Below, piece by piece: positions 12,060 to 32,456 of a DNA stretch of 64,000 bases (its first letter is position 1; the number at the start of each line of letters is the position of its first letter). A program made the position numbers and the translations under genes. The DNA is taken from the IMG/VR virus record IMGVR_UViG_3300025122_000006; one strand, 5' to 3'. The DNA is from a virus. Under the pieces are notes generated by a model. That model ran no database searches. It saw only the letters and a program-made list of their open reading frames with translations, and was not told where the DNA came from.

Positions 12060-12485
12060 TTAATTTCCTGCTAATTTTTTCCAATGTTTACGTGACCCAA
12101 AACTGGAAATATCAATCCCAGGATCACTAGGCGCCATGCCGTCAAGTGCGCTTGATCCATACGGAGAAGAGGGGGATCTTGGAGCCGACATAGGTGTGGT
12201 TCCTTCAAAAATATTTACACCATTGTAAGTGTCTTTTCCGATTGCATCAAGAATTTTTTTTCTATTTTCTTGGAGTTGATTTTGTTTTTTTTGTCTTCGT
12301 GTTTTCGCCTCTTCATCAGATTCAAGTGTAGGTTTTTGTTTTGTTTCATAAACCATTTGTTTCGTAGAAGTTCCTCTTATAACTTCAGAAATAATAGTTG
12401 AAAGAGTGCCTTCTTCAAAAATAACTTCTTTAATGCACTCTTTAATTAACGGTTTCAAAATTTTTTTTAATTCTTCTTTTTTCAT
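12060..12485 (-). CDS. head-module hypothetical protein with variant leader (MKKEELKKILKPLIKECIKEVIFEE)
   Basis: ORF in the head operon with an amphipathic I-x-E-rich N-terminus. Confidence 0.7.
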   Translation of the reverse strand: MKKEELKKILKPLIKECIKEVIFEEGTLSTIISEVIRGTSTKQMVYETKQKPTLESDEEAKTRRQKKQNQLQENRKKILDAIGKDTYNGVNIFEGTTPMSAPRSPSSPYGSSALDGMAPSDPGIDISSFGSRKHWKKLAGN

Positions 12486-12493
12486 TAGAACCT

Positions 12494-12796
12494 CTATTGT
12501 TTATATTGACTGTAGGAATGTCTTTCTGCTTGGAAGGCACCTTGGATTTTTGCAATCTCGACTTCTATTATAGAAATACTTTGACCAAGCCCAGATAGAT
12601 TAGACTCATCATCAGCTGAATACTCATGAGTCGTTTCACTGCCGGCGATTAGTTTGAGTTGTTCGGTTGCTTCTTTTAATTTATCAATTGCTTCTTGCGC
12701 CTTTGCTTGTTCCGATGCAACCTGTTCCTCTGGATAAAAATTTTCTTTTAATTCTTCCTTTATAATTTGAGTTAATCTTTTTTTACTGATCTTCAC
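12494..12796 (-). CDS. leader-bearing small protein (MKISKKRLTQIIKEEL)
   Basis: GTG start; shared N-terminal motif. Confidence 0.7.
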   Translation of the reverse strand: MKISKKRLTQIIKEELKENFYPEEQVASEQAKAQEAIDKLKEATEQLKLIAGSETTHEYSADDESNLSGLGQSISIIEVEIAKIQGAFQAERHSYSQYKQ

Positions 12797-12798
12797 AA

Positions 12799-13407
12799 TT
12801 AATCCCCCAAAATCTTTTTAAATAAATCATTGATACTATTCTCTTTAACCTCACGAAGGCGAGTCGTCATGGAACTTTGGCCACTTGGATAAACATATGC
12901 GTCTGGAGTCGAAGGCTCCGATACTATATCAAAGCAAATCAATTGAAAATCATTCTCAACAACAGTTTGTCCAGCGCTTTCTTTAACAGACCCCAAGCCT
13001 CTAGACGAAATACCAAGTTTAACTCCGGCATTAATAAGATCTTTAAGAATCCGGCCAGAAGGAGTATCGAGAACTTTGAGTTTACCCATCACATTTTTAC
13101 CTTCCCACCAAATATCAGTTGCAATGTGAGAAACATTTTTAAGATTAACAACAGAATCATCCGGGTGATCTAATTCTCCACACGCACGACTGTCTTTAAC
13201 AATCTTCATATAATTATCCATTTCTCTTTTAAGAACTTCATAGGGGTAAACACGACCATTCCCATTTTGTTTATCGGCGGTCTGAAGCTTTCCCGACAAA
13301 TAAAGAACGCCATTTTGCACTTCTCTTCTTTCTTTCTCGGACAGAAGATCTTGGCAAACACCGCCTTCACATAAGGCATAAAATTCTCGTAATAGTTTCT
13401 TTTTCAT
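12799..13407 (-). CDS. gp21: prohead core protease, T4 gp21 family
   Basis: NGNGRVYP, GELDHP, VSH, LDTPSG, GISSRGLGS, FDIVSEPSTPDA motifs. Confidence 0.95.
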   Translation of the reverse strand: MKKKLLREFYALCEGGVCQDLLSEKERREVQNGVLYLSGKLQTADKQNGNGRVYPYEVLKREMDNYMKIVKDSRACGELDHPDDSVVNLKNVSHIATDIWWEGKNVMGKLKVLDTPSGRILKDLINAGVKLGISSRGLGSVKESAGQTVVENDFQLICFDIVSEPSTPDAYVYPSGQSSMTTRLREVKENSINDLFKKILGD

Positions 13408-13408
13408 T

Positions 13409-13636
13409 TTATCCTTTACATGCGTCCAATCTATTGTTAATCGTGTCTATAATCATCATCTTCATACCCGGATCGGTGGAACGATCATTTTGGATTTCGG
13501 CTTTGAGCCATTCTCCATCTTCGATTAATTCATCGCAGGAATAATCATAAATTTCATCAACGGTATAACTTTCTTTCAAAGTTTTACCAAGTTCTTCTTT
13601 AATAAGTTGAATTAATTTTCTTTTTGTAATTTTCAT
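13409..13636 (-). CDS. leader-bearing small acidic protein (MKITKRKLIQLIKEEL)
   Basis: GAGG SD; shared N-terminal motif. Confidence 0.7.
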   Translation of the reverse strand: MKITKRKLIQLIKEELGKTLKESYTVDEIYDYSCDELIEDGEWLKAEIQNDRSTDPGMKMMIIDTINNRLDACKG

Positions 13637-13680
13637 TTTCTTTCCTCAAATAAAAGACTTGCCGGCGCTACCGGCGCGAT

Positions 13681-13740
13681 TCACTTTCCGCTGCAGCAAC
13701 GGCGAACGGGCTGAAACATCCATCGTTTAATCGTCAACAT
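13681..13740 (-). CDS. 19-aa peptide MLTIKRWMFQPVRRCCSGK (not in ORF track)
   Basis: Strong GGAGGTG SD just upstream; overlaps the end of the upstream gene; followed by a GCCGG/CCGGC hairpin (13661-13675). Confidence 0.45.
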   Translation of the reverse strand: MLTIKRWMFQPVRRCCSGK

Positions 13741-14056
13741 AATCACCTCCTGATCTCGACGATACTCTCAAACCAAAGTCATCGACGATCATCGAGAGTA
13801 AATAAGTTGTCCCGCTTCCCAAACAAGATAGGCAGAACATATTCCCTAAAGAATATTCAAATGTAAATAGTTCTGTATAGTCATTTATACAAAATAAAAA
13901 CATCGATGCCCAAAAGCCCATGCACAATGTACAGTGAAAAAGCCAAGTCCATTTTTTGCTTGGATCTTTTTTTGGTCTTATATTACTGAAGATAGACCCA
14001 TAGACCAGAATAAAAGTAAGCCCATAAGCAGTCAAAATAAAATTTAATAAATTCAT
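13727..14056 (-). CDS. small membrane protein with CxxC (DUF1360-like)
   Basis: Three hydrophobic segments and LFHCTLCMGFW motif. Confidence 0.65.
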   Translation of the reverse strand: MNLLNFILTAYGLTFILVYGSIFSNIRPKKDPSKKWTWLFHCTLCMGFWASMFLFCINDYTELFTFEYSLGNMFCLSCLGSGTTYLLSMIVDDFGLRVSSRSGGDYVDD

Positions 14057-14100
14057 ATTACCTCATCTTAAACCATTTTTTGAACTCTTCAGGGGCTTCA

Positions 14101-15484: not shown

Positions 15485-15504
15485 GCTTCTTTCCTTTTCA
15501 TTTT

Positions 15505-15936
15505 TTAATAATCGTAATAGCCACGGCCGCCTTCATCTGGGGCTTCGAAAGCGTCATCCATATCCTCAACTTCTTCGGCAATTTCTTTTGAAAGTTCTTC
15601 GCTTATTCCAACCGTGGTTCCAGGAGGAACCTTGACTTGGCGCATTTTGCCGCCATCGTCTTTCCCGAAGATGCCCTCAAGTTTTAAATCATATCCGGAA
15701 TAGTCTCCTTGCAAAAGATCCATTATATCCAGATCATCAATCATTCCCGTACACTCAATATCAATTGTGTTTCCGGTGTTTAATGTAATCTCAATTGACA
15801 AACATCTACATTCGTCCACCATATCTGGATACTCTACCGTTGCTGATACGGCTTGCAACTGTCCCCCGTCTTCATTAAGGACGCCTTGCATTTCTTCCTT
15901 GATAATTTGTTTTAACTGTTTATTCGTTAATTTCAT
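15505..15936 (-). CDS. leader-bearing acidic protein (MKLTNKQLKQIIKEEM); alternative start 15945
   Basis: Shared N-terminal motif; overlaps the portal stop. Confidence 0.7.
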   Translation of the reverse strand: MKLTNKQLKQIIKEEMQGVLNEDGGQLQAVSATVEYPDMVDECRCLSIEITLNTGNTIDIECTGMIDDLDIMDLLQGDYSGYDLKLEGIFGKDDGGKMRQVKVPPGTTVGISEELSKEIAEEVEDMDDAFEAPDEGGRGYYDY

Positions 15937-17833
15937 TTTCTTCATCCTTCCGCAGTGATTCTATCAATGATTTAATTTCAAAATCAGTACTAAATAGTCT
16001 ATGTTCTTCTAAAATATCAGGGTTTTGTGCTTCCGTCACTCCACGAGAAAGAGAAGCGAGGCCGTCAGCGCCAGTATACCCTGGAAAAGTTTTACGAAAA
16101 GTAAGTGGTTCCGAGAAGGCAGCATTAATCATCTGCTTTCTTCTCCCGCCTTTTCTGTGTATTTTAGTAGAATCTTTTTTATAGGGGCCTCGAGGTTTTC
16201 CTTTCGCCTCTGGTCGCCTGAACACGGTGTCATCACGCTTTGCCGGCGGTTCAGCTAATAAAACTTCTTCTTCTTCCTCGGCTGGTTCTTCTCCGCCTAA
16301 ATCTAATTCTTCTCCGCCTAAATCTAATTCTCCTTCGCCACCAAGACCTAGGTCTCCGCCGGGTCCGCCTCCTGCCTCGGGAAGTTCTCCGGCTTGTTCA
16401 ACTGCAGCCATAAATTTGGCGTCCGAATACATTTCTCTTTGCATTCGAATAAATTCATCCTCAGAAAGTCCTAGAAGATTTTCTGCAACCCAACGTCGCG
16501 AGAAATAACCATCCGTAGCAGCTGCCGCAATGTCAAATTTAGTTTTCCAATGCTCAAGCTCTTGCATCTCCGCAATTTTACTAGGGTTATTGAGAGAAAG
16601 CTTGAAGCCAAGCAAATCATCTCCGCGATAACCCATAGTATAAAGATGGATAATACCAATCTTTTCGAGTTCAGATATAATAACTCTTTGAAGTCGCTGA
16701 ATAGTTCTTGCAAAACGAATATCTTTTTGGGCTAATGTGGTTTTGTCTTCTGTTGCACCTTCCCCCATTGTAAGATAAGATTGGGGTACTTTAAGAGCAG
16801 AAAACAATTTATCTCGAAGATACTTTACATCATCAATTTGGCCTGTGAAAGTTCCTCCGGCAAGGTTGGTGATGTCCGTTGCCGAAGCCCCTCCTCGAAT
16901 TGGGATAAAATAATCTTCTTCAATAGAAAGAGGGTTATAACGTAAATCAACGCGACCAGATGACGGATCAACCACTTGATGCCGCTTCATTTGAGTCATT
17001 ATTTTTTGCATATATTGCTCAACATCTTGCGGCGCAATTCCACCGACATCGATCTTGAAGACACGGCGCTCGGGCGAACGAGTAATCCGATAAGCCATCA
17101 TGGCATCTTCCAAAAGATTAAGTTGCCTCCAAATGCGTCTGGCTGGCTCTAGAGCGCTGGTACCATATGGAGCATGCTTATCATTACCTAAAACTCTAAA
17201 ATGTGCTATTTGCCAATTCTCGAGCGTTAAACCACCATTGTTCCATTGATACTGAATATAATTGGGATTTGATGGGTCTTCTCCTTCTAAGCGTTCAATT
17301 TCTTGAGCAGGAAGACCAATACAGTTTCTAATCCCCAATCCTTCGTCAATGTCTAGATATACAAACAAATCTCCATATTTACACATTGTTCTAGCCCAAC
17401 CAAAAAGATTATGCTCAATGTTCATAACATTATAATAAAGAGAATGTAATATATATTTAATTTCGTCATTGGGGCATTTAATATGCAACATTGGAGTTAA
17501 ACTTGAATGAGTTGTCATTTCATCTGCATAGATATCTAATGAAGATGCAATTTCCGGCGTATACTCCATCTGATCAAAATCAATATATCGCTCTGCACGA
17601 TTTCTATTTGAAATCATATTGAGCGAAGTTACATTCATGGGGTTGTATTCAGACTTTTTGAACTGCTTTCCGCTAGCTGATTTAAACCTTTTAGCGTAGA
17701 TATCTAAATGTCTTCTTCTTAATTGCCGACCCGATTGTGTTCTTCTCTGGGTAAGTGGTCCGGAAAAAAGCCTTGTTAAAGACTTAAACAGGTCAGATTG
17801 GTTATTATTTGGGTTTCTATCATTACGAGCCAT
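15920..17833 (-). CDS. gp20: portal protein, T4 gp20 family
   Basis: ARRIWRQLNLLEDAMMAYRITRSPERRVFKIDVG, EEDYFIPIRGG, DDVKYLRDKLFSALKVP, DIRFARTIQRLQ. Confidence 0.95.
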   Translation of the reverse strand: MARNDRNPNNNQSDLFKSLTRLFSGPLTQRRTQSGRQLRRRHLDIYAKRFKSASGKQFKKSEYNPMNVTSLNMISNRNRAERYIDFDQMEYTPEIASSLDIYADEMTTHSSLTPMLHIKCPNDEIKYILHSLYYNVMNIEHNLFGWARTMCKYGDLFVYLDIDEGLGIRNCIGLPAQEIERLEGEDPSNPNYIQYQWNNGGLTLENWQIAHFRVLGNDKHAPYGTSALEPARRIWRQLNLLEDAMMAYRITRSPERRVFKIDVGGIAPQDVEQYMQKIMTQMKRHQVVDPSSGRVDLRYNPLSIEEDYFIPIRGGASATDITNLAGGTFTGQIDDVKYLRDKLFSALKVPQSYLTMGEGATEDKTTLAQKDIRFARTIQRLQRVIISELEKIGIIHLYTMGYRGDDLLGFKLSLNNPSKIAEMQELEHWKTKFDIAAAATDGYFSRRWVAENLLGLSEDEFIRMQREMYSDAKFMAAVEQAGELPEAGGGPGGDLGLGGEGELDLGGEELDLGGEEPAEEEEEVLLAEPPAKRDDTVFRRPEAKGKPRGPYKKDSTKIHRKGGRRKQMINAAFSEPLTFRKTFPGYTGADGLASLSRGVTEAQNPDILEEHRLFSTDFEIKSLIESLRKDEENEINE

Positions 17834-17836
17834 TTT

Positions 17837-19420
17837 TTATCCTTTATAAATCCAAAAAAATTCTTTTGTTTTGTTTATTTCTTCTTCATGTTTTTCATGA
17901 AAAGTTTGTTTATAACCTTCTTGTCCTTTTATTTGTGTATTCATAGTTGTGGTTGTCTTCATTAAGCCATTAAGCATTGCTTTTTTGTATTCCATATCTC
18001 TTTGGTTCTCTGATAATGCAGTATCTCTTACCCAGCAGGCAATTGCTAAAGATATAACTAGATCATCATTATAAGAACGCATTGCTTGAGGCTTCCCATT
18101 GTACCATATAAAAGTTTTCATTTCATGAAACAAACGATTAGAATGTACAGTAATTAGTTTATTTCTAATGTACTCCTCTAGTTTTGCTACAATTAAAGGC
18201 CTTGTTTTAGTGGAAGTTGTAAACCCTGGTACAGATCTATCATTATCCTCTGCCAAATAAGCCTCAACATATTCGTGGGTTGACTTAATTGAATAATATA
18301 ATTTTGGATATTCCAAAGTAATTAATTTTTCTAATATAGAAATGCCAATCCCATTATTTTCGACAACCAACAAACAGTTGCCGTATTCTCTGCCTGCATC
18401 ATAAAGAATATTTGAATAAAGATCAAGGTTTGGTTTTCCTTGATATTCAGCAACAACTGCCATTGTGTCTAGTCTTATTACATGAAAAACAGAATAATCT
18501 GTACCATCGCCACGAGCAACATCGGCTACCAAAAGATATGGAAGACCTTCTTGATATTTTTCCCATATCCATAAATTTCTGTCATATCCAGTTTTATAGT
18601 GGGGGTCTTTAACATTTTCAAATAACCACTGCATATCGTCCGGGTGGATAACAGTTTCGCCTGAAGTATTGAAATTACATTCTAATTCCTGGGCGATCTG
18701 TCTTCGAGACATATTTTTGGTTTCTTTTGCAAACCAATCCTGATCTCTTTCAGGATGCATATCCCAAGGTAAAACAATTGGATGAAAATCGTTCTCTTCT
18801 GACTCTGCATCAATGTAAGTCTTGTGGAACCAATTACCTACCCCTTTAGGGGTCGATAAGGCTATGCAGCGGCCTCCTGTTGACAAAGTAGGGTAAAGAC
18901 CCGTCCACAACTCTTCAAGGCCTTCTACGTGTGCTGCCTCGTCTATAACGAGCAGTGATAAGGCTTCCGATCTACCGGCATCTCCAGAAGTCGTTCCTGC
19001 TTTGATCTGTGACCCGTTTGATAATTCGAATGAAGTTTTATTATCCGTTACGATCTTTGAAATTTTAATCCATTCGGGTAAATGCTTCATAATTGATTTT
19101 ACTTTTCTCACCAAGTTAGCTGCTGTTCCAAACTTAGTGGCAATTACAAGAATGTTCTTGTCTCTATGAAAAAGCATAAACCAGACAATGTATCCCGCTG
19201 AGATTGTGGAGATACCCAATTGTCTGGCTTTAAGTATAATATTGAAACGATAATCATTAAAGTCTTTTAAAAGATCTTTTTGATAATTGTAGGTTTTAAA
19301 CGGAATCAAGCCCCGCAGAGGATGTGAAATTCTACAATAGTTATCGATAAAGAATTGTGGATCCTTACCGCATTTCACAATCTCTTTTACAATTTCTTGT
19401 TTGGAGAGTTTAAAGGCCAT
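17837..19420 (-). CDS. gp17: terminase large subunit, T4 gp17 family
   Basis: Walker A LKARQLGIST, Walker B LLVIDEAA, STPKG, QELECNF, nuclease VADVARGDGTDYS, VENNGIG, DDLVISLAIA. Confidence 0.96.
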   Translation of the reverse strand: MAFKLSKQEIVKEIVKCGKDPQFFIDNYCRISHPLRGLIPFKTYNYQKDLLKDFNDYRFNIILKARQLGISTISAGYIVWFMLFHRDKNILVIATKFGTAANLVRKVKSIMKHLPEWIKISKIVTDNKTSFELSNGSQIKAGTTSGDAGRSEALSLLVIDEAAHVEGLEELWTGLYPTLSTGGRCIALSTPKGVGNWFHKTYIDAESEENDFHPIVLPWDMHPERDQDWFAKETKNMSRRQIAQELECNFNTSGETVIHPDDMQWLFENVKDPHYKTGYDRNLWIWEKYQEGLPYLLVADVARGDGTDYSVFHVIRLDTMAVVAEYQGKPNLDLYSNILYDAGREYGNCLLVVENNGIGISILEKLITLEYPKLYYSIKSTHEYVEAYLAEDNDRSVPGFTTSTKTRPLIVAKLEEYIRNKLITVHSNRLFHEMKTFIWYNGKPQAMRSYNDDLVISLAIACWVRDTALSENQRDMEYKKAMLNGLMKTTTTMNTQIKGQEGYKQTFHEKHEEEINKTKEFFWIYKG

Positions 19421-19429: not shown

Positions 19430-19525
19430 TTATTTTTTCTTTTTAGGGGTGGGCTTTGTTCCCTTCATAACATTTTCCAATTCTTCTTTTACTATTCTTT
19501 TGAGCTGTTCTTTTGTAAGTTTCAT
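19430..19525 (-). CDS. 31-aa leader-only peptide MKLTKEQLKRIVKEELENVMKGTKPTPKKKK (not in ORF track)
   Basis: ATGA overlap with the upstream stop, AGGAG SD upstream, exact match to the shared leader; fills the gap before terminase. Confidence 0.7.
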   Translation of the reverse strand: MKLTKEQLKRIVKEELENVMKGTKPTPKKKK

Positions 19526-20088: not shown

Positions 20089-20709
20089 TTATCTTCTGTC
20101 TCTGGCCAGGCTTTTCTGTATCCTAGCGCTGTGTCCTGGGGTGGCTTTCCCGGGGGCATCGTGCTCTGGCTTCCACCCTGATGCTCTCAAGGCCTTTGTA
20201 TGTGCCTGTTGCTGTTTTTTCAGTTTTGCCGCTGCTTTCTTTTTCTCTTTCGCCTCACCGGCATCCACTATGCCTCCCACGGCTACATCCAATAGAAAAG
20301 CGACTGCAACAGGAGCAAGAAATCCAATAGCGGCCGTTCCTAAAGTTGCAAGCGATGTGCCCATAACTACTGCTGTTTTTGCTAACAATACTTTACCAGC
20401 GGCTGAGGCTAAAAACGCCGTCATCGATGGATATCCAGCGACTAGAATAGAAGAGACGGCTAACGGTACATTGAGTGCGTCCACATCTTCCTCATTTTTT
20501 TGTACTTGAATATCGGTTTGTGCCACTATTTTTTTCACCTTGGGATCTCTTGAAAGAGCTAAAAAGATTTTATCCAAATTTGGATTATCTTTCATTTCCA
20601 CTGCTGCTTTCATAATTTTATCTTCTTGCCCGGTGGTGGTAGCCTCTTGCACTACGCTTTCGAGTTCTTCTTTAATAAGACATTTAAGCTGTTCTTTTGT
20701 TAATTTCAT
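20089..20709 (-). CDS. leader-bearing protein with long hydrophobic (membrane) region; start re-called at 20709 (MKLTKEQLKCLIKEEL)
   Basis: ATGA overlap with the upstream stop; shared leader; ~65-aa A/G/V/L-rich stretch. Confidence 0.7.
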   Translation of the reverse strand: MKLTKEQLKCLIKEELESVVQEATTTGQEDKIMKAAVEMKDNPNLDKIFLALSRDPKVKKIVAQTDIQVQKNEEDVDALNVPLAVSSILVAGYPSMTAFLASAAGKVLLAKTAVVMGTSLATLGTAAIGFLAPVAVAFLLDVAVGGIVDAGEAKEKKKAAAKLKKQQQAHTKALRASGWKPEHDAPGKATPGHSARIQKSLARDRR

Positions 20710-23445: not shown

Positions 23446-23957
23446 TCTTCAATTACATAATCTACAAGAGGGCCGAGTACCTTTTCTTCTACGTCAAAGT
23501 ATTCCTCCAGAATATCAATTATATCTGATCGCTCTGTTCCCGCAGCTCGTTCATGCTTTATCATTTCGATCTCGTCGTCATAATAAAATTTATCATCATC
23601 AGTCAATTCATACAAATTCTCCGGACTGTCCGGCGCATCTATCCTCGCATCTTCAATTTGACTGATTAAACTATTCAGGGGATGCACATATTGATCAAAC
23701 CAATCGGGTGTATACACCCCCGCGGGGCCTTGTTTATATTCTCTTTGGAGTTCATCGCGCTCTTGCTTAACAATCTCTAAAGCAGCGGACAATTGTTCAT
23801 GTCCCCAGTAGGCCCACATATCTGAACTAACTGCTCTCAATTCTTGTTGAATTTGAAAAGCAGATAGTCCTCCTAGAGGAGTCAGGGCTTCTAAAAGAGT
23901 TGCTTTCTCTATCTCTTCTTGAATAACTTGTTTAAGCTGCTGCTTAGTAAGTTTCAC
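23436..23957 (-). CDS. leader-bearing acidic protein (MKLTKQQLKQVIQEEI)
   Basis: GTG start with GGAGG SD; shared leader. Confidence 0.7.
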   Translation of the reverse strand: MKLTKQQLKQVIQEEIEKATLLEALTPLGGLSAFQIQQELRAVSSDMWAYWGHEQLSAALEIVKQERDELQREYKQGPAGVYTPDWFDQYVHPLNSLISQIEDARIDAPDSPENLYELTDDDKFYYDDEIEMIKHERAAGTERSDIIDILEEYFDVEEKVLGPLVDYVIEEWG

Positions 23958-23960: not shown

Positions 23961-24203
23961 TTACCCTCCGTGCTTCCAAGATTTCGCAAAATCAATAACA
24001 GATTGACCGCCGATGTAACACACTGCAATCATTCCCCAGATGTCCGGATCGAGACTTGCCCAGAGCATAAGACCTGTCGCTGTGAGAAACACAAGTAACT
24101 TACGACTTACAACTTTTTCTTGCAAGGAATCGAGCATCCCTTTGTCTTTATTCTTGAGATACAATTCATTTTGTATCATTACTTTACTTTCTTCTTTATC
24201 CAT
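23961..24203 (-). CDS. putative holin; start re-called at 24203 (MDKEE)
   Basis: AGGAG SD, TAATG overlap, SRKLLV followed by two hydrophobic helices. Confidence 0.5.
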   Translation of the reverse strand: MDKEESKVMIQNELYLKNKDKGMLDSLQEKVVSRKLLVFLTATGLMLWASLDPDIWGMIAVCYIGGQSVIDFAKSWKHGG

Positions 24204-24454
24204 TACAATTCTCCTTCTAGTTTTCGGATTAGCCAAAAATACTTTTTCCTTTCTCTCGGCGTAAGATCCTTACCCGACACTACCTTTTGATGAAGTTTTT
24301 CTTTTTCTTCGAGCGCTGTCTCGTGCGCAGTTTTTCTCGGCGTGGGCTCGGTATGACCACCGACAGATCCAGCAACGGGCCCCATTGATAGCTCTTCAAG
24401 AGATTCAAGTTCTTCCTTAATGATTTGCTTCAGTTGTTCTTTTGTTAATTTCAT
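24203..24454 (-). CDS. leader-bearing small protein (MKLTKEQLKQIIKEEL)
   Basis: TAATG overlap with the Mre11-Rad50 stop; consensus leader. Confidence 0.7.
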   Translation of the reverse strand: MKLTKEQLKQIIKEELESLEELSMGPVAGSVGGHTEPTPRKTAHETALEEKEKLHQKVVSGKDLTPRERKKYFWLIRKLEGEL

Positions 24455-27400
24455 TAGATTTTTACCTTTGCAAAGCCATCTGCTTTTTGAATGTCGATTG
24501 TCTTGTCGACAATATCCTTTAAAGATTCGAGATGGGAAATTAAGAGAACCGTTTTAAATTGGCTTTTAATCATTTGAAGAAGACGAATAAAGCCTTCCAT
24601 ATGATCTTGATCCAATGCTGTTGCTGGTTCGTCAAGAATAAATAGTTCCGATTTTGGTAAATTGGTTACTGAAATCAAAGCAAGGCGGATAGCCATTGAT
24701 GCAATTGTCTTCTCCGCACCAGATCCCATCGACAATGGTCTAGGATCATACTTCGGATGTTTAATATATATTTCTAATTTATTATCAACATTATCAAAGA
24801 AAACTTCAAAGTCCACAATAGTATTAAGCACAGAAGATATCTCTTTGTTAATAATAGGGAGCATTGATTTAATGACCTGATAAGATACGCCATTGGCATG
24901 CATAGCTTGAATATATAAATCATAAGCGATAAATTCTTTTTCAGCGTCATCAATTTGTTTAATATGTTCTTTTGCTTCTTCAATTAAGCGCCGGGTGGAA
25001 CCCTCCTCAGACATGAGAATCATAATCTTCTTGTTACACTTTTCAAGCTCTTCTTGCTTCTTACTCACCGTTAATTTGATTGCCCGAAGGTCTCTTTGTA
25101 AGGATTCCAGATTATCATATGCTTCTTGGTTTTTATAATAGTGCTCAATCTTCGCAAGGGTTTCTTCGATCTCCTTTCCCGTGAGAGCCTTCTTGCTCTC
25201 GTGTGCCTCATTTTGAGCGCGTATTTTTTGTATCTTTGCTTCATTTGTCTTGCTCTTTGTTAATTTATTTTTATAGTCCTCGATTGCATTCTTTACGGAC
25301 TTTATGTCAATCTTGCCAAGGAGTTCGTTATTTAGAAAAATCTCATCATTAACCTCTTCAAGTTTCTCTTGAGACTTTATGATTTCTTTCTTTGCTTTGT
25401 GCGCTTCTTTTACGAACTGGTTATCACAGCAGAATTCACAATTAGGATCGTATTCGTGATCATGAAGCAAATCAATCTTCGCTTGGTAATTGGCAATCTT
25501 TGAGGCTAAATCCCTCTGTCTTATTTTTAATCTACGACCAAGATCGGTCAAGGATTTATGCTGCTCTTGTTGGCCGGTGTACTCATCGAGATTAAAATTA
25601 TCGATAAAGCCTTTTAAACGCTCTTTTAAGGCCACCAAGCCCTTTACATAACTGTCGCCACTCTCAATCGCTTTAGAGATATCCCGCTGGACTTCACGCT
25701 TCTCTTCAAGCATATCAAGAAGAATGCGAATATCTACTGGTTCAGCCCCAATTGATCTTAGCTGTTCTTCTATTATCTTTTGTTCTTCTAGAAGATCCTT
25801 GGTTCTCGCTGCGTGTTTTTCACAAAGGTCAGATTGGTTGGCTATGTCTTCTAAAATTTCAGAAAGAGCTTCTTGATTCCATTTTAGCTTTTTGCGCCAA
25901 TCAACAGAGTTTAAGTGTTTAATCACGCCTTTCTTTTCGGCCGAATCTTTCTTCGCAAGTTTATGTTTTTCCTCAAACATCTTAAGGTCAAGAAACTTCG
26001 CAAGAATTTCTTTGCGCTTTGTTGAGCCTTCATTAATAAAACCAAACGCATCCATCTGGGAAGCCATAGAAGTGATCATAAAGTCATTATAGTTCCCAAA
26101 TGTTTTGCGAATAATTTCGTCTGTTGCATTGCGAGTCATGCCGTTTTTACTTTCGGGATGAATACCCAAAGCATATTTGGTAAAGTCCAACTCTGTCTTT
26201 ACCTCTTTGGTTTCTTTGCCTTTTAATTTTTTCTGATATGTTTCGAGGTTCCTCGTGATCTTGTAGGTATCATCACCGACTCCGATCTCGAGTTGACACT
26301 TAGCCTTTTCGCGATTTTGATTGACGATATGGACATTTTTTCTCTCTCCTTTTGACGTAGTGTTAAACAGCCCAAATAAAGCGGCATCGATGATACTTGA
26401 CTTGCCTGAATAATTTTTGCCGAAAATTCCAACAAGACCATTTAACTTGTCAAAATCAATTTCATTACTTTCGCCGTAGTTAAATAGATTGCTCCATTTC
26501 ATTTTCTTAAGTTTCCAAACAATATTTCTAGAAACATCATCGGTATTTTTAATTTGTCTAGAATATTCGCGGTTGAGTTCTAAAATTCTTTCCAAAATAT
26601 CATCGGTTATTTCTTTATCAGATAAGAACGCTTTGATATATTTTTCTTGAGTATTTTGATCACGCATGTTAATCGCTTTACCATCTTGATGTACAATAGA
26701 CGAATTGGAGTATCCTGCTCGATTAACAAGGTTAATTGAATAAGGACTCCACTTAGCATTAGCATAATCACATGCCCTTCGTAGTTTTATTAAAGGCAAG
26801 TTATAATTTGAAACCAGACGAAGACGGGAATTTTTTGGCACTTTAACTTTTGGTAAAGTACCATTTTGATTGATTTCCACCGTATAAAATGGTCGAGGAG
26901 ACATAAATAATCTTTTTTCAACATTGAAATTTTCTTTATCTCGGATGTCCCACAAGAGGTAACCTTTTCTAAGAGACTCTCCAAAATTCTGCTGAACAGT
27001 GGAACCCGCATACCAGACTCGACCATCTACATCTAACTTTTGCGTCTTATGAATATCACCAAGCATAGCAAAATCGAAATCACGGAATATATCAACATCG
27101 TCCTCACCATTATCAAGACTCCACTCTTCATTAATTTCACATCCCATAATAGCACCATGATAAAGCGCAATATTTACCCTAGATTTATCAGAAGGAGAGA
27201 CCCAGTTGTCTCTATCAAACACAGAGAGGACATTAAGGCAGATAGAATTGTCCAACTGGGTCTCTCCAGAATTTTTTAATAAATTTAAATTGGGATGTTG
27301 TAATGCTTCAATAATCGGTGATATTGCATCCTGCCTATTACCATTCTTAAGATTACCATCATGATTTCCTAAAATAATGAATGTTGGGGCGATATCCGCA

Positions 27401-27603
27401 AGATTTTTAAGAAAATCAGCGCACAACTCAAAGTATTCCGGAGAGAGTTGTGTCTTTGTATGAGCTATATCTCCGGTATGGATAATATAATCTGGCTTAT
27501 CATTCTCAAGGCTCTCATATATATCTTTAAAAACTTTCTTGTATTCATCATGATATTTCACGTTACGAATATGTGTGTCTGAAATGTGTGCAAAAGTAGT
27601 CAT
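24454..27603 (-). CDS. fused Mre11/SbcD nuclease - Rad50/SbcC ATPase (T4 gp47-gp46 equivalent)
   Basis: Phosphoesterase HISDTH, HTGD, GNHD, LGDIHK; Walker A GKNYSGKSS; hook CEFC; signature MGSGAEK; Walker B LFILDEP; LISH. Confidence 0.93.
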   Translation of the reverse strand: MTTFAHISDTHIRNVKYHDEYKKVFKDIYESLENDKPDYIIHTGDIAHTKTQLSPEYFELCADFLKNLADIAPTFIILGNHDGNLKNGNRQDAISPIIEALQHPNLNLLKNSGETQLDNSICLNVLSVFDRDNWVSPSDKSRVNIALYHGAIMGCEINEEWSLDNGEDDVDIFRDFDFAMLGDIHKTQKLDVDGRVWYAGSTVQQNFGESLRKGYLLWDIRDKENFNVEKRLFMSPRPFYTVEINQNGTLPKVKVPKNSRLRLVSNYNLPLIKLRRACDYANAKWSPYSINLVNRAGYSNSSIVHQDGKAINMRDQNTQEKYIKAFLSDKEITDDILERILELNREYSRQIKNTDDVSRNIVWKLKKMKWSNLFNYGESNEIDFDKLNGLVGIFGKNYSGKSSIIDAALFGLFNTTSKGERKNVHIVNQNREKAKCQLEIGVGDDTYKITRNLETYQKKLKGKETKEVKTELDFTKYALGIHPESKNGMTRNATDEIIRKTFGNYNDFMITSMASQMDAFGFINEGSTKRKEILAKFLDLKMFEEKHKLAKKDSAEKKGVIKHLNSVDWRKKLKWNQEALSEILEDIANQSDLCEKHAARTKDLLEEQKIIEEQLRSIGAEPVDIRILLDMLEEKREVQRDISKAIESGDSYVKGLVALKERLKGFIDNFNLDEYTGQQEQHKSLTDLGRRLKIRQRDLASKIANYQAKIDLLHDHEYDPNCEFCCDNQFVKEAHKAKKEIIKSQEKLEEVNDEIFLNNELLGKIDIKSVKNAIEDYKNKLTKSKTNEAKIQKIRAQNEAHESKKALTGKEIEETLAKIEHYYKNQEAYDNLESLQRDLRAIKLTVSKKQEELEKCNKKIMILMSEEGSTRRLIEEAKEHIKQIDDAEKEFIAYDLYIQAMHANGVSYQVIKSMLPIINKEISSVLNTIVDFEVFFDNVDNKLEIYIKHPKYDPRPLSMGSGAEKTIASMAIRLALISVTNLPKSELFILDEPATALDQDHMEGFIRLLQMIKSQFKTVLLISHLESLKDIVDKTIDIQKADGFAKVKI

Positions 27604-27625: not shown

Positions 27626-27659
27626 ATTATAGGATAACCCATATCGCGTAAGTTGTCAA
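27626..27659 (-). promoter_or_regulatory. sigma70-type promoter for Mre11-Rad50
   Basis: TTGACA, then TATCCT at 17-nt spacing, overlapping a TATAAT at 22-nt spacing. Confidence 0.55.
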
Positions 27660-27778: not shown

Positions 27779-27779
27779 C

Positions 27780-28715
27780 TTAAATATTTTTTAATTGTTT
27801 TTCGAGGAAATACATATCGTTATCAATCTCTTCCGCCATATTTAATTTTTCTAAAAACACTGATCGTGTCATAGAACCAACATCTTCATAATACTCAAGG
27901 TTTATTTTTTTAACCTCAAGGTCGTATTTCATCATGGATCTGATAATCCAATGTGCTTTCTTTTCTGCATCTGAATCTAGGGCAACATATACCGGTGTAT
28001 CATGAATCGCCAAAGCCTGAAATAGTTTTGAGTCTTCTCTAAGGGTCGAGCCAAGAATGGGAATAACATTGTCGCCAACAACGATGGCATCAAAAATACC
28101 CTCAACAATAATCACGGGCTCATCCCAATCAATCATCAGTTCATTAAAAACAATGTCGCGACCACAGGGTGGATTAAGATACCTACGATTATGCCCCACA
28201 TATGAACGAGCAATAAAATAATTACAATCTCCGTCGTTGTCAATAGATGGGATGATAATTCTTCCTGCATAGTGTCCTTCCTTACAATATCCTATTTTCC
28301 ATTTTAAAATCTCAGATTTACTTATTCCTCTTTTCCTAAGATAGTCCAGCGGAGCCTGAGAACGCAATGGCAGATGTTTGTTGCACAAAGAAATAAACTC
28401 TTGTGGTAATTCAATTTTTTGTTTTATTTCAATATCACCTAGTTCTTTAAAGATATCTTCGAACTCTGTGAGGTCTAAACGACCTTGCAATTCAAGATAC
28501 TTTTGTCTTTGTTGGTAATCCCCAAACTTTCTTACAAGTCGGTAAATATTCTTTCCTCGTGCATCACACACCCAACATTTAAAAGAGTTAATCGAAAAGT
28601 TGACCGACATCTTCTTCTTGTGGTGTTTGCAATACGGGCACGAATATAGGTATTCATCGCCAGAACGACGATATGAACCGAGGATGTCGGTTATTATCTT
28701 TCGTTTATCATTCAT
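27780..28715 (-). CDS. DNA primase (Zn finger + TOPRIM)
   Basis: CPYC...CWVC; RIIIP; VEGIFDA; ALDSDAE. Confidence 0.9.
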   Translation of the reverse strand: MNDKRKIITDILGSYRRSGDEYLYSCPYCKHHKKKMSVNFSINSFKCWVCDARGKNIYRLVRKFGDYQQRQKYLELQGRLDLTEFEDIFKELGDIEIKQKIELPQEFISLCNKHLPLRSQAPLDYLRKRGISKSEILKWKIGYCKEGHYAGRIIIPSIDNDGDCNYFIARSYVGHNRRYLNPPCGRDIVFNELMIDWDEPVIIVEGIFDAIVVGDNVIPILGSTLREDSKLFQALAIHDTPVYVALDSDAEKKAHWIIRSMMKYDLEVKKINLEYYEDVGSMTRSVFLEKLNMAEEIDNDMYFLEKQLKNI

Positions 28716-28730
28716 GTTGTCCTCTCATGT

Positions 28731-28760
28731 ATAATATAACATGTTGAGACGATTTGTCAA
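28731..28760 (-). promoter_or_regulatory. sigma70-type promoter for primase and tRNA
   Basis: TTGACA-N16-TATATT with extended -10 TG. Confidence 0.7.
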
Positions 28761-28773
28761 GTGTTTTCTAAAA

Positions 28774-29661
28774 TTAAACTTCAACTCCGAAGACACTTTC
28801 GACAAGAGGAGGGATTTCTTGTGAGGTTACATAACCATCTCTTCCTGCATGTTCGGGTTGCAAGAGGATGTATCGGGACTTGCCTTCTGTCCACGCAGGG
28901 TGCTTCTCTGATCGGGTTCCCCATAAATCTTCTTGGAGCCCAGACACTATCGTTAGACTTAGTTTCTCTCTGCTGTATTCAGGCGCTAAGTTCTTTATTT
29001 GCAATTTAAACTCTTGCAGAACCCAGGAAGATTCTTTTCCCTTATAAAAACTAAACCAGATGTCCACTGCGGGATAGTCTTTATCTCCCACAAATCTCCT
29101 TCGGGAAATGCTACCATTTCGTACCCCTAAGGTATCCTCATGTATGTATAGCTCCCATCGATTTGGGACACCAAAATCCATACCAAATGTTTGCGTTGCC
29201 ATGCTTAGAATCTCTTGTCTAAAGTTTACAACCTCTCCGACAGTCAATCGCCCAGTATATCCGATATCTTCATTGCCGACAGGAATTTCTGCTTTTTGGA
29301 GTTCTTTCATCATGTCATCAGTGAAAAGAGGACGGGAAGGATAAACCTGAACGCTGTCCATGTCCCAATTAATAATATCAAGTGGTTCGTATAATTGTTC
29401 CTCGGGAAATAAAACTTCTAATGCTCCCCGCGGGGATCCTCCTTTATAAAGGGCGTTCGCCAAAACATATTTTATCTGATTTTGTTGTTCCTCTGACAAA
29501 TCGTCAATCAGAGATTGGTAGAGATCGAGAGCCATTTCAGGAGCGCTTTCAGCAACATTTATGAGGTTGTCGATCTCTTCTTGATCTATGGAAAAAGATT
29601 CTTCTTCATCTTCCAATGCTTCAAGGATTAGTGCTTTTAATGCTATTTCTGTTAACTTCAT
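28774..29661 (-). CDS. leader-bearing acidic protein (MKLTEIALKALILEAL)
   Basis: Diverged shared leader; has its own late motif upstream. Confidence 0.7.
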   Translation of the reverse strand: MKLTEIALKALILEALEDEEESFSIDQEEIDNLINVAESAPEMALDLYQSLIDDLSEEQQNQIKYVLANALYKGGSPRGALEVLFPEEQLYEPLDIINWDMDSVQVYPSRPLFTDDMMKELQKAEIPVGNEDIGYTGRLTVGEVVNFRQEILSMATQTFGMDFGVPNRWELYIHEDTLGVRNGSISRRRFVGDKDYPAVDIWFSFYKGKESSWVLQEFKLQIKNLAPEYSREKLSLTIVSGLQEDLWGTRSEKHPAWTEGKSRYILLQPEHAGRDGYVTSQEIPPLVESVFGVEV

Positions 29662-29678
29662 AGGAGATCCTCACCCTA

Positions 29679-30227
29679 CTAATTAGTGAAGATTTTCCTT
29701 ATTTGTTCTTCTTTTACGTGGCTTGGAATGAATCTTTCTATAGATTTGTGCTGGGACAAAGCCTCTCGGAACTCTGTTGCAGAAATAAACTCTTCTTGTT
29801 CGTAGAGCGAAGGTACTTGAATGATCTTCGAAGTTACTTCTCGAAAGTGACTTACAAAGCCTGCCTGGTATCCTTCATCTTTGGATGAAACGCCTAAACA
29901 AATCTTGTTTTCGCTTTCTTCATAGTTTTCCTCAGCCCAATCATACACATCTGCGAAAGGGTTCGTATAAGCGCCTCTAGCGCCCTTTCTAGGCTTCGCA
30001 CGTTGATAGACGACCTTGGGGTGCTTGAGGATGCCATAGGCCTCTAGAACGGCTTCTGCTTGCTCTAGAGAGACTTCAAAGTCTTGTCCCGCTTCGCGAA
30101 GCCTATCTCCGCAAAAAACCCTCACCTCAGATACGTGTGGGTTGGTGATGTAGTGCATAAAGAATTTGTAATGCCCTACGTGAGGCGGTTTGAATCCGCC
30201 GGGTATTAATACGGTTAGCTTGGTCAT
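29679..30227 (-). CDS. HxGH-superfamily nucleotidyltransferase (cytidylyltransferase-like); start re-called at 30227 (MTKL)
   Basis: PGGFKPPHVGH and ISATEFR motifs; GGAGG SD. Confidence 0.85.
   Translation of the reverse strand: MTKLTVLIPGGFKPPHVGHYKFFMHYITNPHVSEVRVFCGDRLREAGQDFEVSLEQAEAVLEAYGILKHPKVVYQRAKPRKGARGAYTNPFADVYDWAEENYEESENKICLGVSSKDEGYQAGFVSHFREVTSKIIQVPSLYEQEEFISATEFREALSQHKSIERFIPSHVKEEQIRKIFTN
29680..29687 (-). promoter_or_regulatory. putative late promoter motif ACTAATTA
   Basis: 18 nt upstream of the ATG at 29661. Confidence 0.55.
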
Positions 30228-30254
30228 TGTGTCCTCCAATGTTCATAATAAGAT

Positions 30255-30283
30255 ATTATAACGTGTTAAGAACGATTTGTCAA
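30255..30283 (-). promoter_or_regulatory. consensus sigma70 promoter
   Basis: TTGACA-N17-TATAAT. Confidence 0.85.
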
Positions 30284-30287
30284 GTTT

Positions 30288-30497
30288 TTATTTAGGTGCT
30301 ACCACAGAACCATCTGGCATTTCGTGTGTCCCTGCTGCAGTTCTCGCTTGGATTTCAATAATAGCCATCATGTGTTCTGAGTCCATTCCAGCCTCGAGTG
30401 CTTGGTGTACGGCCGCGGTGAATGCTTCTCCGGGCTCCTGAATTGAATCCAACTCTTCTTTAATAATTCGTTTTAGTTGTTCTGTTGTAATTTTCAT
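30288..30497 (-). CDS. leader-bearing small protein (MKITTEQLKRIIKEEL)
   Basis: GGAGG SD; shared leader; C-terminal HEMPDG. Confidence 0.7.
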   Translation of the reverse strand: MKITTEQLKRIIKEELDSIQEPGEAFTAAVHQALEAGMDSEHMMAIIEIQARTAAGTHEMPDGSVVAPK

Positions 30498-30501
30498 TAT
30501 A

Positions 30502-31353
30502 CTATAAACCTCCCCTCATTAAGGCTGAATAATTTTCTTCATATTCTGTTTTAAGAACCAATATTAGATCTTCTAGATCCTTCATATAAACATCATCAAA
30601 AATAGGATCTCTTACGACAGTCAGCATTTCTCTGATAATTTGATATTGGTTTCTGAATCCAAAAGGAAACTCTTCCAGATCCTTGGCAATTTTCTCTGCC
30701 TTGGCTGCTTCCTCTGCTTCCTCTTCTTCTTTCCATTTTCGTCTTCTCTCCTCTGCTGCTTTGTCCCACTCTTCTTGTTCCTCAGGTGTTCTCCATGGGA
30801 TAGCTTGTATTAAAGGGCCGGACACACGCTCCAGCAGGGCATCTGCAGGAAGCGACTCTCCCAATAATTTTCGAAAAGGATTTGCTGCCGATAACATGTT
30901 GTACAACCCGCCCACTGCTTTAAAAACCTTTAGGCGACGCGAGATGGCTTGACTCATGGATTTAAAAAAATGTCCCAGACTACTGCCCATTTTTTGTTTA
31001 ATAAGTTCATAATTCTTTTCTTCTCTCTCGGGGGGTGCGTCAAATTTTCCTGCTTTAATGCGATTGTATTTGTCTTTAACTAAATAATACAAATCAACCA
31101 CCCACATATCTCCAGTGGTTTTCGAAGGTCTGGTTGCCGAATGGGACATATCACCTACAAATTCACCACCAGGGTCGAAATCTCGGAGGTCTCGATTAAA
31201 ATAATCTTTTGCAGTTGAAATTAGTTTTCCCGAAAGATCCACTAGTTCTTGTGCCCTAGATAGAAGTTCCGGATTAACATCCTGCTTATCTTCTTCTTTC
31301 AACCACTTATTAAAATTTTCGGTTAATAATTTGAATTCTTCGTGTTTACTCAT
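30502..31353 (-). CDS. hypothetical protein with type-2 leader (KLLTENFNKWLKEE)
   Basis: Late motif upstream; helical. Confidence 0.7.
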   Translation of the reverse strand: MSKHEEFKLLTENFNKWLKEEDKQDVNPELLSRAQELVDLSGKLISTAKDYFNRDLRDFDPGGEFVGDMSHSATRPSKTTGDMWVVDLYYLVKDKYNRIKAGKFDAPPEREEKNYELIKQKMGSSLGHFFKSMSQAISRRLKVFKAVGGLYNMLSAANPFRKLLGESLPADALLERVSGPLIQAIPWRTPEEQEEWDKAAEERRRKWKEEEEAEEAAKAEKIAKDLEEFPFGFRNQYQIIREMLTVVRDPIFDDVYMKDLEDLILVLKTEYEENYSALMRGGL

Positions 31354-31376
31354 TTAAATTTTCCTCTTGGACTCTT

Positions 31377-31384
31377 TAAATAGT
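31377..31384 (-). promoter_or_regulatory. putative late promoter motif ACTATTTA
   Basis: 23 nt upstream of the ATG at 31353. Confidence 0.55.
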
Positions 31385-31394
31385 CCCTAGGAAA

Positions 31395-31898
31395 CTAAAA
31401 ATGTGATAATGCGACAACAATTGAATCTGCCATGTCATCTGTTCCGGGTTTTGGATTTCCGTGCCGGGTAAGAACCACTGTAAAGTCTTTGGGGTATTTC
31501 TTTTCAACCCATTCGATAATCTTTTTCTTTGTGTTCTCGCCTCTTTTGATTTTGATTCCGCTCTTTGATCTGGCTGACCTTGACGAAACAAGATCTGGCA
31601 AGATCTCGAACATCACGTATGAAAGAACAGAAATCATTCCGTTGAATCTCTGGAGCTTTGACATCGTTCCTGCTGTCGTCTTTCCGCCTGAGAACATTGT
31701 GAACGGCTCCTCTATGCGCACATGCGTTATTATATAAGTGCGTTTAATTCTAGCCAATTCGTTGTTAAAAAACTTCATCGCTCTTTCCTCAAGCGTTCCA
31801 TCTTTGAATTTCAAGAAGCTAACTTCTTTTAAATTTTGTTGATCGTCAATAACACAGTAGCCAATCTTGGATGTGCTTACATCTATTCCTAATATCAT
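31395..31898 (-). CDS. RuvC-like Holliday junction resolvase
   Basis: ILGIDVSTSKIGY, IEEP, DMADSIVVA RNase H-fold acidic residues. Confidence 0.85.
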   Translation of the reverse strand: MILGIDVSTSKIGYCVIDDQQNLKEVSFLKFKDGTLEERAMKFFNNELARIKRTYIITHVRIEEPFTMFSGGKTTAGTMSKLQRFNGMISVLSYVMFEILPDLVSSRSARSKSGIKIKRGENTKKKIIEWVEKKYPKDFTVVLTRHGNPKPGTDDMADSIVVALSHF

Positions 31899-31904
31899 AT
31901 ATAT

Positions 31905-31933
31905 ATTATAACATGTTATGAAAGGTTTGTCAA
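31905..31933 (-). promoter_or_regulatory. consensus sigma70 promoter, probably giving a leaderless mRNA
   Basis: TTGACA-N17-TATAAT, 6 nt before the ATG, no SD. Confidence 0.85.
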
Positions 31934-31934
31934 G

Positions 31935-32456
31935 TTATTTTTGTCTTTGTTGCGATTGCCATTTCTGCAGTTCGAGTGGAGATACTTTTCCATCTTTATT
32001 AAGATCCGGGCTATCAGAGGTTTGCTCTGGTTGTGTATCTTGCTGTGTTCCTTTACCGTCAGCCCAATCAAACAATTGACCCACAATTATATCTGCTTGA
32101 TTTCCTTGGACTTTATCTTGAATTTTCACTGCCCTATCGGCAACACCATCACCATCTGAATCTGCTTGTTGTGCAGCGGCCATATATTCATCAAAAGCAG
32201 TTCTAATATCATCTGTGTCTACACCTTGATAAGAATCTCCTTGCAATTCAATTTTATTCATCATGACCTCGGCTTCTGCCAGCTCCTTTTCGTCCAAATT
32301 AATTTGTTGTCCTCCGACTATAAACGCTGCCATTGTGAGCAAAGTGGTGCCAAAACCCTCTTCTATCTGATCGTCATATGCTTCGTCTAATTGATCGAAG
32401 GACATCGATTCATTAATAAACCGCCGCCAGTTTTCCATTATAAGTTTTTGTTTCAT
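31935..32456 (-). CDS. acidic protein with type-2 leader and EF-hand-like loop; start re-called at 32456 (MKQKLIMENWRRFINES)
   Basis: GAGGG SD, late motif upstream, DLNKDGKVSPLE and DSDGDGVAD loops. Confidence 0.7.
   Translation of the reverse strand: MKQKLIMENWRRFINESMSFDQLDEAYDDQIEEGFGTTLLTMAAFIVGGQQINLDEKELAEAEVMMNKIELQGDSYQGVDTDDIRTAFDEYMAAAQQADSDGDGVADRAVKIQDKVQGNQADIIVGQLFDWADGKGTQQDTQPEQTSDSPDLNKDGKVSPLELQKWQSQQRQK

Follow-up and report, generated by a model that had tools for sequence, protein, structure and literature searches.

The 64,000-nucleotide stretch of the IMG/VR virus record IMGVR_UViG_3300025122_000006 (the window, with the region under study at 12060-32456) contains eleven genes that begin with nearly the same 16-residue peptide, here called leader 1, and that encode otherwise apparently unrelated proteins, here called cargos. 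We propose, at a probability of roughly 0.55, that leader 1 is a capsid-targeting tag that is clipped by the prohead protease and works like the capsid-targeting sequence (CTS) of phage T4, in an uncultured marine T4-like lineage. In T4, diverse internal proteins share only the CTS, which loads them into the scaffolding core (PMC3012670). In a tentative extension of this proposal, one that we think somewhat improbable, at least two interchangeable tags would bring into the capsid, for delivery with the DNA, a large and quickly changing repertoire of unrelated proteins, among them ribonuclease (RNase) toxin-like, leucine-rich repeat (LRR), pentapeptide-repeat (DNA-mimic-like), acetyltransferase and nuclease-like ones.

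A profile hidden Markov model (HMM) was built from the eleven N-termini listed in a preliminary description of this DNA and searched against the 1,958 stop-to-stop frames of the window. It recovered exactly these eleven (E 2e-10 to 2e-5), with the next match at E 0.7. A regular-expression scan of the six frames also found the motif eleven times, always on the minus strand at the listed starts and 1-34 residues past the preceding stop codon, and the shared leader is thereby confirmed. No leader-1 copy was found outside 12.4-30.5 kb in the six-frame window, and none was internal. All copies are located at start codons and are preceded by a Shine-Dalgarno-like sequence. In the alignment of the eleven leaders, M1, L8 and E14 are invariant and K2, T4 and I12 are conserved in at least 90%, which gives the 16-residue consensus MK[LI]TKxQLKxIIKEEL. 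Among same-residue codon pairs between the leaders, the codon is identical in 244 of 473, versus 213 expected from the codon usage of the phage, and the invariant Leu8 is encoded by five different codons. Since synonymous sites are near random, selection appears to act on the leader peptide, in agreement with the earlier claim that conservation is at the protein level. The claim that the proteins are dissimilar past the leader was likewise upheld by BLASTP, which detected no mutual similarity among the ten downstream parts that could be scored (the 31-residue gene at 19430-19525 is too short), and searches of Pfam and PHROGs gave no significant family match for ten of the eleven window cargos (the same 31-residue gene was not scanned). 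The supposed variant leader at 12485 had to be given up, as it is the N-terminus of a conserved 141-residue protein whose gene comes after that of the protease in most related contigs. The leader genes, including one with a second leader (leader 2) described further below, are as follows.

12494-12796, minus strand: leader-1 gene, 100 residues, GTG start, MKISKKRLTQIIKEEL, HMM E 2e-5; a variable insert between the protease and the 141-residue protein
13409-13636, minus strand: leader-1 gene, 75 residues, HMM E 2e-8; inserted between the start of the protease gene and an intergenic gap that bears a terminator
15505-15936, minus strand: leader-1 gene, 143 residues, acidic (isoelectric point, pI, 4.1), HMM E 4e-9; starts within the 3' end of the portal gene
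19430-19525, minus strand: leader-1 gene, 31 residues, a leader with a lysine-rich tail, pI 10, the best HMM match (E 2e-10); just upstream of the gene for the large terminase subunit (TerL)
20089-20709, minus strand: leader-1 gene, 206 residues, pI 9.5, with a long hydrophobic Gly/Ala-rich stretch (a run of 21 residues), HMM E 1e-9
21911-22372, minus strand: leader-1 gene, 153 residues, MKLTKQKLSKLITEAL, HMM E 9e-8
22372-23034, minus strand: leader-1 gene, 220 residues, HMM E 2e-8
23436-23957, minus strand: leader-1 gene, 173 residues, GTG start, acidic (pI 4.1), HMM E 1e-6
24203-24454, minus strand: leader-1 gene, 83 residues, with the consensus leader MKLTKEQLKQIIKEEL, HMM E 2e-9; overlaps the stop codon of SbcCD at its start (TAATG)
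28774-29661, minus strand: leader-1 gene, 295 residues, with the most divergent leader MKLTEIALKALILEAL, HMM E 4e-7; second gene of an operon with a perfect sigma-70-type promoter (at 30283)
30288-30497, minus strand: leader-1 gene, 69 residues, acidic, HMM E 1e-9
31935-32456, minus strand: leader-2 gene, 173 residues, MKQKLIMENWRRFINES, leader-2 HMM E 3e-8; 32456 is the end coordinate of the region

The end of the leader resembles a predicted cleavage site of the prohead protease. The major capsid protein of T4, gp23, sheds a propeptide of 65 residues (PMC9026906), and its cut site reads FLTE/AEIGG, between E65 and A66. In an alignment of capsid proteins, the E-A pair is invariant: LLRE59/A60 in the window, IVSE/A in Flavobacterium phage immuto and LISE/A in Microcystis phage Mel-JY01 are aligned with E65-A66 of T4 gp23. 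Because this invariant pair aligns with the T4 cut site, a protease specificity for hydrophobic-hydrophobic-x-Glu is expected, and the gp23 of the window is predicted to be cut after L-L-R-E59 during maturation. A hydrophobic-hydrophobic-x-E motif ends exactly at residue 14 in all eleven window leaders, and the L/I-x-E at the end of the tag takes the form I12-K13-E14 in ten of them and has V12 in one. Among the matches listed from the wider search described below (309 homologues), E14 is present in 99% and I12 in 98%, and Asp is not among the commonest residues at position 14. In the T4 CTS, an Asp at the last position stops processing while targeting persists (PMC9026906). With so short a motif, the match is compatible with cleavage and not a proof of it.

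We infer docking, cleavage, packaging and injection of the leader proteins, by the following route. The leader would form an amphipathic helix that docks the tagged protein on the scaffolding core during prohead building. The gp21-type protease would then cut after I-I-K-E14, and the freed cargo would either stay in the head and exit with the DNA or be degraded and expelled like a core protein. Leader 2 (…L[IF]MENWRRFL.E) would do the same job.

To learn how widely leader 1 is spread, we searched a degenerate DNA pattern for the leader against IMG/VR, which gave at least 120 stretches; the counts of copies, cargos and clusters given here come from the matches listed. By the HMM, at least 309 leader-1 copies are present in at least 120 related stretches, in proteins with a median length of 108 residues and a maximum of 485 residues, and the source contigs are T4-like genomes of about 180-290 kb. 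The leader is restricted to the N-terminus, as 306 of the 309 copies start at M or V by one count and about 95% by another. Its information content is high at positions 1-16, weak and helix-like up to position 22, and drops to about 0.1 bit at position 23 and beyond, in a stretch rich in G, E and D. Positions 1-15 of the leader are subject to a bias from the pattern search; 76 copies found by the HMM alone, in loci selected by their protease, have the same profile, with Glu14 in all N-termini among those listed. Stripped of their leaders, at least 286 cargos sort into at least 233 BLASTP clusters, 210 of which are singletons, consistent with the proposal that the leader is fused to variable domains. 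Pfam domains were identified in only a handful of the 139 longest cargos and are unrelated to each other: LRR, pentapeptide repeat, YkuD, GNAT, FliG_C and a ParB-like nuclease.

In bacterial and archaeal genomes (596 Gb), the same DNA pattern was found in only nine stretches, all of them on contigs of metagenome-assembled genomes (MAGs). Several leader genes are located on NHDW01000006.1 (305 kb; loci L125, L129 and L132) and PBIO01000025.1 (101 kb; locus L128), contigs binned in Methylococcaceae TMED69 and Halobacteriovorax MAGs, which are probably mis-binned phage contigs. The preliminary description had named a motif equally frequent inside proteins and in unrelated genomes as an outcome that would speak against its reading; the N-terminal restriction and the scarcity in prokaryotes go the other way. 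Among cultured phages, a search of the complete T4 genome with the leader profile gave no match at E of 1 or below, no copy was found in cyanophage P-TIM40, and immuto and Mel-JY01 each have a single weak partial match (E 4.5e-4 and 0.07, respectively). A tblastn search against cultured phages gave no match for the 24-residue leader, a short query that may have been masked as low complexity, or for the 141-residue protein. In the literature, the motif string occurs in no paper, and nothing relevant was found on CTS combined with marine or metagenome.

The leader is confined to the T4-type lineage that carries the gp21-type protease, and the two co-occur as had been anticipated. An S77 protease is encoded by 27 of the 45 leader contigs of at least 30 kb and by all three of those that are at least 90% complete (CheckV); the leader contigs without it are fragments that are 11-81% complete. 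Of 80 loci chosen solely by protease similarity, 42 contain leader genes in the available flanks, always on the strand of the protease. Near-complete genomes of 185-289 kb contain 6, 12, 16, 23 and 26 leader copies, often in tandem arrays.

Leader 2, with the pattern M-x(1-4)-L-[IF]-M-E-N-W-R-R-F-L-x-E, also ends in hydrophobic-hydrophobic-x-Glu. Beyond the gene at 31935-32456, it was identified in 73 genes in related loci, including L102, L068, L160 and L194, and is N-terminal in 71 of the 73. The gene at 30502-31353 (…LLTENFNKWLKEE) was also considered as a leader-2 gene; it was not detected by the leader-2 HMM, and the resemblance is unconfirmed. The two leaders are found on homologous cargos. 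In L111, an 89-residue protein with leader 1 shares 67% identity with a protein of L102 that has leader 2, and the members of one cargo family begin with leader 1 in L015 and with leader 2 in eight or more further loci. Homologs of the 220-residue cargo (22372-23034) have leader 1, degenerate forms of leader 1, or leader 2 (VKLILESWKRFLNEE). The cargo homology across swapped leaders starts at about residue 23-32 in each case. Since homologous cargos carry either one, leaders 1 and 2 appear to act as exchangeable modules with one function.

Eight frames run leader-cargo-leader-cargo without a stop codon between the units; such fused frames are found in L065 (484-1608), L049, L092, L019, L022, L025 and L075, and in the proteins P0005, P0006, P0008, P0010 and P0013. 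Several homologs of the 220-residue cargo also run directly into another leader and cargo. These fusions may be polyproteins jointed by protease sites. In the internal leader copies that lack the Met, only the QLKQIIKEEL half is kept. In the T4 CTS, the targeting determinants are placed in the N-terminal part and the processing determinants at the end (PMC9026906), and the retained half would fit a similar split between N-terminal docking and C-terminal processing.

The 220-residue cargo was modelled with AlphaFold at a predicted local distance difference test (pLDDT) score of 88.7, with the leader as a helix of lower confidence that is unbroken to residue 33. The fold of the cargo looks novel and confident, and it contains a conserved HIKDRH motif. 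A Foldseek search against the PDB gave no match at E 0.001 or better. A full PDB scan (VIA) aligned 92-96 residues with YxiD, MafB2-CT and CdiA-CT (5e3e) at Z 5.2-5.5, below the trust level, and BrnT at Z 4.7, and the ESM Atlas pointed to a CdiA-CT RNase A cluster at 0.85, which is also below the trust level. As both scores are below the trust levels of the tools, the likeness to RNase toxins of the BECR type is a lead and not an assignment. For the 295-residue cargo (28774-29661), the ESM Atlas gave no usable match. The product of the gene at 20089-20709 is probably membrane-active, judging from its hydrophobic stretch.

The genes that flank the protease are conserved in their order but not in the leader genes inserted between them. 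In the relatives, a 109-residue membrane protein, a gap of about 90 nucleotides, the protease and the 141-residue protein follow each other; in the window, the 109-residue protein is encoded at 13727-14056, directly upstream of the protease, and contains CxxC motifs, and it is kept in most relatives. A 75-residue leader gene is placed just before the protease of the window and a 100-residue one just after it. In other relatives, both slots contain different leader genes (68-228 residues before and 36-238 residues after) or none: the slot of 13409-13636 is empty or taken by unrelated leader genes of 68-228 residues, and that of 12494-12796 contains a homolog with a variant leader and 49% identity in L133 and is without a gene in most relatives. 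T4 has the core proteins gp67 and gp68 at the position of these slots. In T4, these two proteins are degraded and not injected. More broadly, we sampled 148 non-leader open reading frames (ORFs) within 2.5 kb of leader genes, which sorted into 45 Pfam families, and inspected the 25 commonest of these. The commonest were Portal_T4 (13), Terminase_6N (8), Peptidase_S77 (6), primase (6) and SMC (5).

Perfect or near-perfect TTGACA-N17-TATAAT promoters with conserved flanks are located in three intergenic gaps, at 31933, 30283 and 28760, and a weaker fourth one at 27659. The genes behind them are a RuvC-like gene, a gene for a 186-residue protein, the primase gene and an Mre11/Rad50-like gene, respectively. 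The first three (31905-31933, 30255-30283 and 28731-28760, minus strand) are nearly identical (ACTTGACAAAyC…TAACAyGTTATAwTAT) and look like a conserved early-promoter cassette of the sigma-70 type. The leader genes at 13409-13636, 12494-12796, 15505-15936 and 19430-19525 are embedded in the head operon, and a terminator-like hairpin (13675-13661) is located just upstream of the first of these. Over all loci, a strong sigma-70-type promoter is located directly upstream of 1 of 415 leader genes versus 44 of 1,658 other genes, and is thus ten times rarer there (Fisher p 0.001). CTATTTA[AG] was considered as a marker of leader genes and rejected: it has a strand bias in the window (11 versus 1), yet its upstream frequency across loci is 6.3% versus 4.9%.

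Several observations weigh against a capsid-targeting tag or against the delivery of its cargo. As L/I-x-E is a short motif that helices often contain, its presence alone is weak evidence. Leader 1 has no detectable similarity to the T4 tag MKTYQEFIAE and, as far as its sequence goes, does not belong to the T4 CTS family. The co-occurrence of the leader and the protease may be simple shared ancestry, since a protease of this type is present in all T4-like phages. No protease more than 60% identical to that of the window was found among cultured phages. In complete genomes, most leader copies are grouped in tandem arrays at a distance from the head genes. With respect to timing, the leader genes at 28774-29661 and 24203-24454 are downstream members of early-looking promoter operons with replication genes. 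There is no enrichment of the T4 late promoter TATAAATA in the window (10 matches versus 6.6 expected, one of them on the coding strand), and no k-mer or promoter motif marks the regions upstream of leader genes across all loci. Early synthesis alone would not refute packaging, because CTS fusions made from plasmids are packaged in T4 (PMC9026906). By analogy with gp67 and gp68, the position of the leader genes beside the protease would count against an injected arsenal. The charge of the cargos points in the same direction. Nine of the eleven leader-1 cargos are acidic (pI 4.1-4.7, computed after removing the first 14 residues), as is that of the leader-2 gene at 31935-32456, and since the internal proteins of T4 are basic and bind DNA, this weighs against such an arsenal. 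The two cargos that are not acidic are the 17-residue Lys-rich tail and the one with the long Gly/Ala-rich hydrophobic stretch.

Four other explanations of the leader were weighed. The one that survives best is that the leader is a docking helix that stays uncleaved, has no relation to the capsid and binds some other common partner (a phage hub, chaperone or host machine, for instance). The early-looking operons and the distant arrays would suit such a partner, as would the narrow hydrophobic stripe of the amphipathic helix and its unbroken course to residue 33 in the AlphaFold model. We nevertheless regard it as unlikely, since it leaves unexplained the hydrophobic-hydrophobic-x-E at the end of both interchangeable leaders, the near-invariance of E14 and the virtual lack of Asp, the retention of only the half with this motif in internal copies, and the enrichment of head genes among the neighbours.

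A second explanation keeps the prohead as the target of the leader and holds that most cargos are accessory parts of the core or scaffold, like gp67, gp68 and gp22, which build or size the head and are then degraded and expelled. In their small size and acidity, most cargos resemble gp67 and gp68 of T4, several cargos have further internal hydrophobic-hydrophobic-x-E sites, and leader genes fill the gp67/gp68-like slots beside the protease. However, the at least 233 unrelated clusters, the gain and loss between close relatives, and the LRR, pentapeptide, GNAT, nuclease-like and RNase-toxin-like folds are unlike conserved structural parts, which makes this explanation quite improbable in our view.

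It is very improbable that the leader genes are fast-diverging tandem paralogs in which the N-terminus was kept for reasons of translation start or mRNA, without a role in targeting. The tandem arrays of small genes and the A-rich, Lys-rich start would agree with such an origin, but the near-random synonymous sites indicate selection on the peptide, the conservation over 16 residues follows a helical hydrophobic pattern, the cargos include unrelated Pfam folds, and the leader changes between homologous cargos. Hardly credible is a recognition sequence for a modifying enzyme, as in ribosomally synthesized and post-translationally modified peptides (RiPPs). One leader on many substrates is the RiPP pattern, but the cargos reach 485 residues with folded domains, and no radical-SAM or other dedicated modifying enzyme was found among the 25 commonest of the 45 neighbour families (148 ORFs).

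The capsid-targeting tag proposed here can be compared with four known systems. Like the T4 CTS, it is a short N-terminal peptide that ends in L/I-x-E on otherwise unrelated proteins, in a phage that encodes a gp21-family protease and a probable gp22-type scaffold; the set of tagged genes differs from relative to relative, and the targeting and processing halves appear separable. It differs in its length of 16 residues versus 10, in the number of tagged genes per genome (6-26 versus 3-4) with more than 230 cargo clusters, in that the cargos are mostly acidic and not basic, in having at least two interchangeable leaders, and in being known here from sequence alone. To our knowledge, the propeptides of the head and ejection proteins of the giant phages phiKZ and SPN3US, which their prohead protease cleaves, are not one shared portable leader, and their cleavages have been mapped by mass spectrometry; the leader here is nearly identical across cargos and its cleavage is predicted. 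Common to both would be many head-internal proteins, a short processing motif that ends in Glu, and possible polyprotein-like junctions (PMC5694885, PMC7411985, PMC10052503). The polymorphic internal protein (ip) loci of the T-even phages also combine a constant tag with a variable cargo that turns over between close relatives, and this cargo has been read as arms-race effectors, for example IPI*, which acts against GmrSD (PMC3012670, PMC9026906). Unlike the ip loci, the leader genes belong to a far more distant lineage with a different tag, on a larger scale, and their slots are scattered through the head and replication modules and in arrays. The modular architecture is shared with polymorphic toxin systems, in which a constant N-terminal trafficking part precedes a variable C-terminal toxin, and one cargo weakly resembles RNase toxins of the BECR type. 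The proposed route is a phage capsid rather than a secretion system, and no immunity genes were identified.

The window itself is, from its gene content, a fragment of a T4-like myophage in which the minus strand holds all long reading frames. The gp21 homolog at 12799-13407 named in the preliminary description was confirmed. The protease and other features of the window are listed below.

1701-3578, minus strand: gp23-type major capsid protein (Pfam Gp23, E 2.6e-76)
3603-4829, minus strand: probable gp22-type scaffold, 408 residues, acidic and helical (position and composition only)
12060-12485, minus strand: conserved 141-residue protein, with orthologs directly downstream of the protease in most of the 80 protease-selected loci
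12799-13407, minus strand: T4 gp21-type prohead protease (Pfam Peptidase_S77, E 1.8e-32; PHROG 207, E 2.7e-60)
15920-17833, minus strand: T4-type portal protein (Pfam Portal_T4, E 6.6e-77)
17837-19420, minus strand: TerL (PHROG 2, E 8e-53; Terminase_6N)
27780-28715: primase
31395-31898: RuvC-like protein
54338-56537: baseplate wedge proteins
Within the window: a tRNA-Leu gene

The probable scaffold gene is located directly upstream of gp23, and the N-terminus of its product resembles that of the protein at the same position in immuto and Mel-JY01. The N-terminal helix of the 141-residue protein, MKKEELKKILKPLIKECIKEVIFEEG, contains several hydrophobic-hydrophobic-x-E sites; the protein is probably a prohead core protein. 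A gene for ribosomal protein S21 (11843-12058, Pfam E 2.5e-9) follows the protease and the 141-residue protein, and the same arrangement is present in Mel-JY01. Amid the head genes, the frame at 4974-10253 encodes a 1,759-residue protein with internal repeats, in which TTCTATTTAAAGATGG is present four times; the guanine plus cytosine content reaches 52% at 6-8 kb, versus about 38% in the rest of the window, and the product of the next gene, 10276-11100, has a tail-fibre-like C-terminus. Among the replication genes, 24454-27603 combines an Mre11-like phosphoesterase and a Rad50/SbcC-like ATPase in a single fused protein of 1,049 residues (Metallophos and AAA_23/SMC_N). The 186-residue protein at 29679-30239 has an N-terminal GGFKPPHVGH that, read from the sequence, is reminiscent of HxGH nucleotidyltransferases; it has no Pfam match.

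The portal protein is 40-42% identical to those of immuto and Mel-JY01 and 27% identical to those of T4-like cyanophages. In IMG/VR, hundreds of contigs encode proteases that are 64-88% identical to that of the window, and one leader protein has a Tara Oceans label in public data. Because cultured phages are distant while IMG/VR holds hundreds of close proteases, the window appears to originate from an uncultured and apparently marine clade.

If leader 1 is a capsid-targeting tag, a motif of 16 residues would mark the capsid-travelling proteins of widespread uncultivable marine phages, which could not otherwise be known without virions, and more than 230 orphan protein families would become candidates for effectors that act in the first minute of infection. 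The T4 principle of a constant tag and a variable cargo would then reach far beyond the T-even phages, and the exchange of leaders and the fusions joined by them would illustrate the evolution of such cargo sets. With the tag as a sequence handle, injected host-takeover or anti-defence effectors could also be mined by the hundreds from metagenomes, and phages of hosts other than E. coli would gain a portable packaging signal. Should the tag have no role in packaging, the presence of a nearly invariant peptide of 16 residues on hundreds of unrelated viral proteins would call for another explanation.

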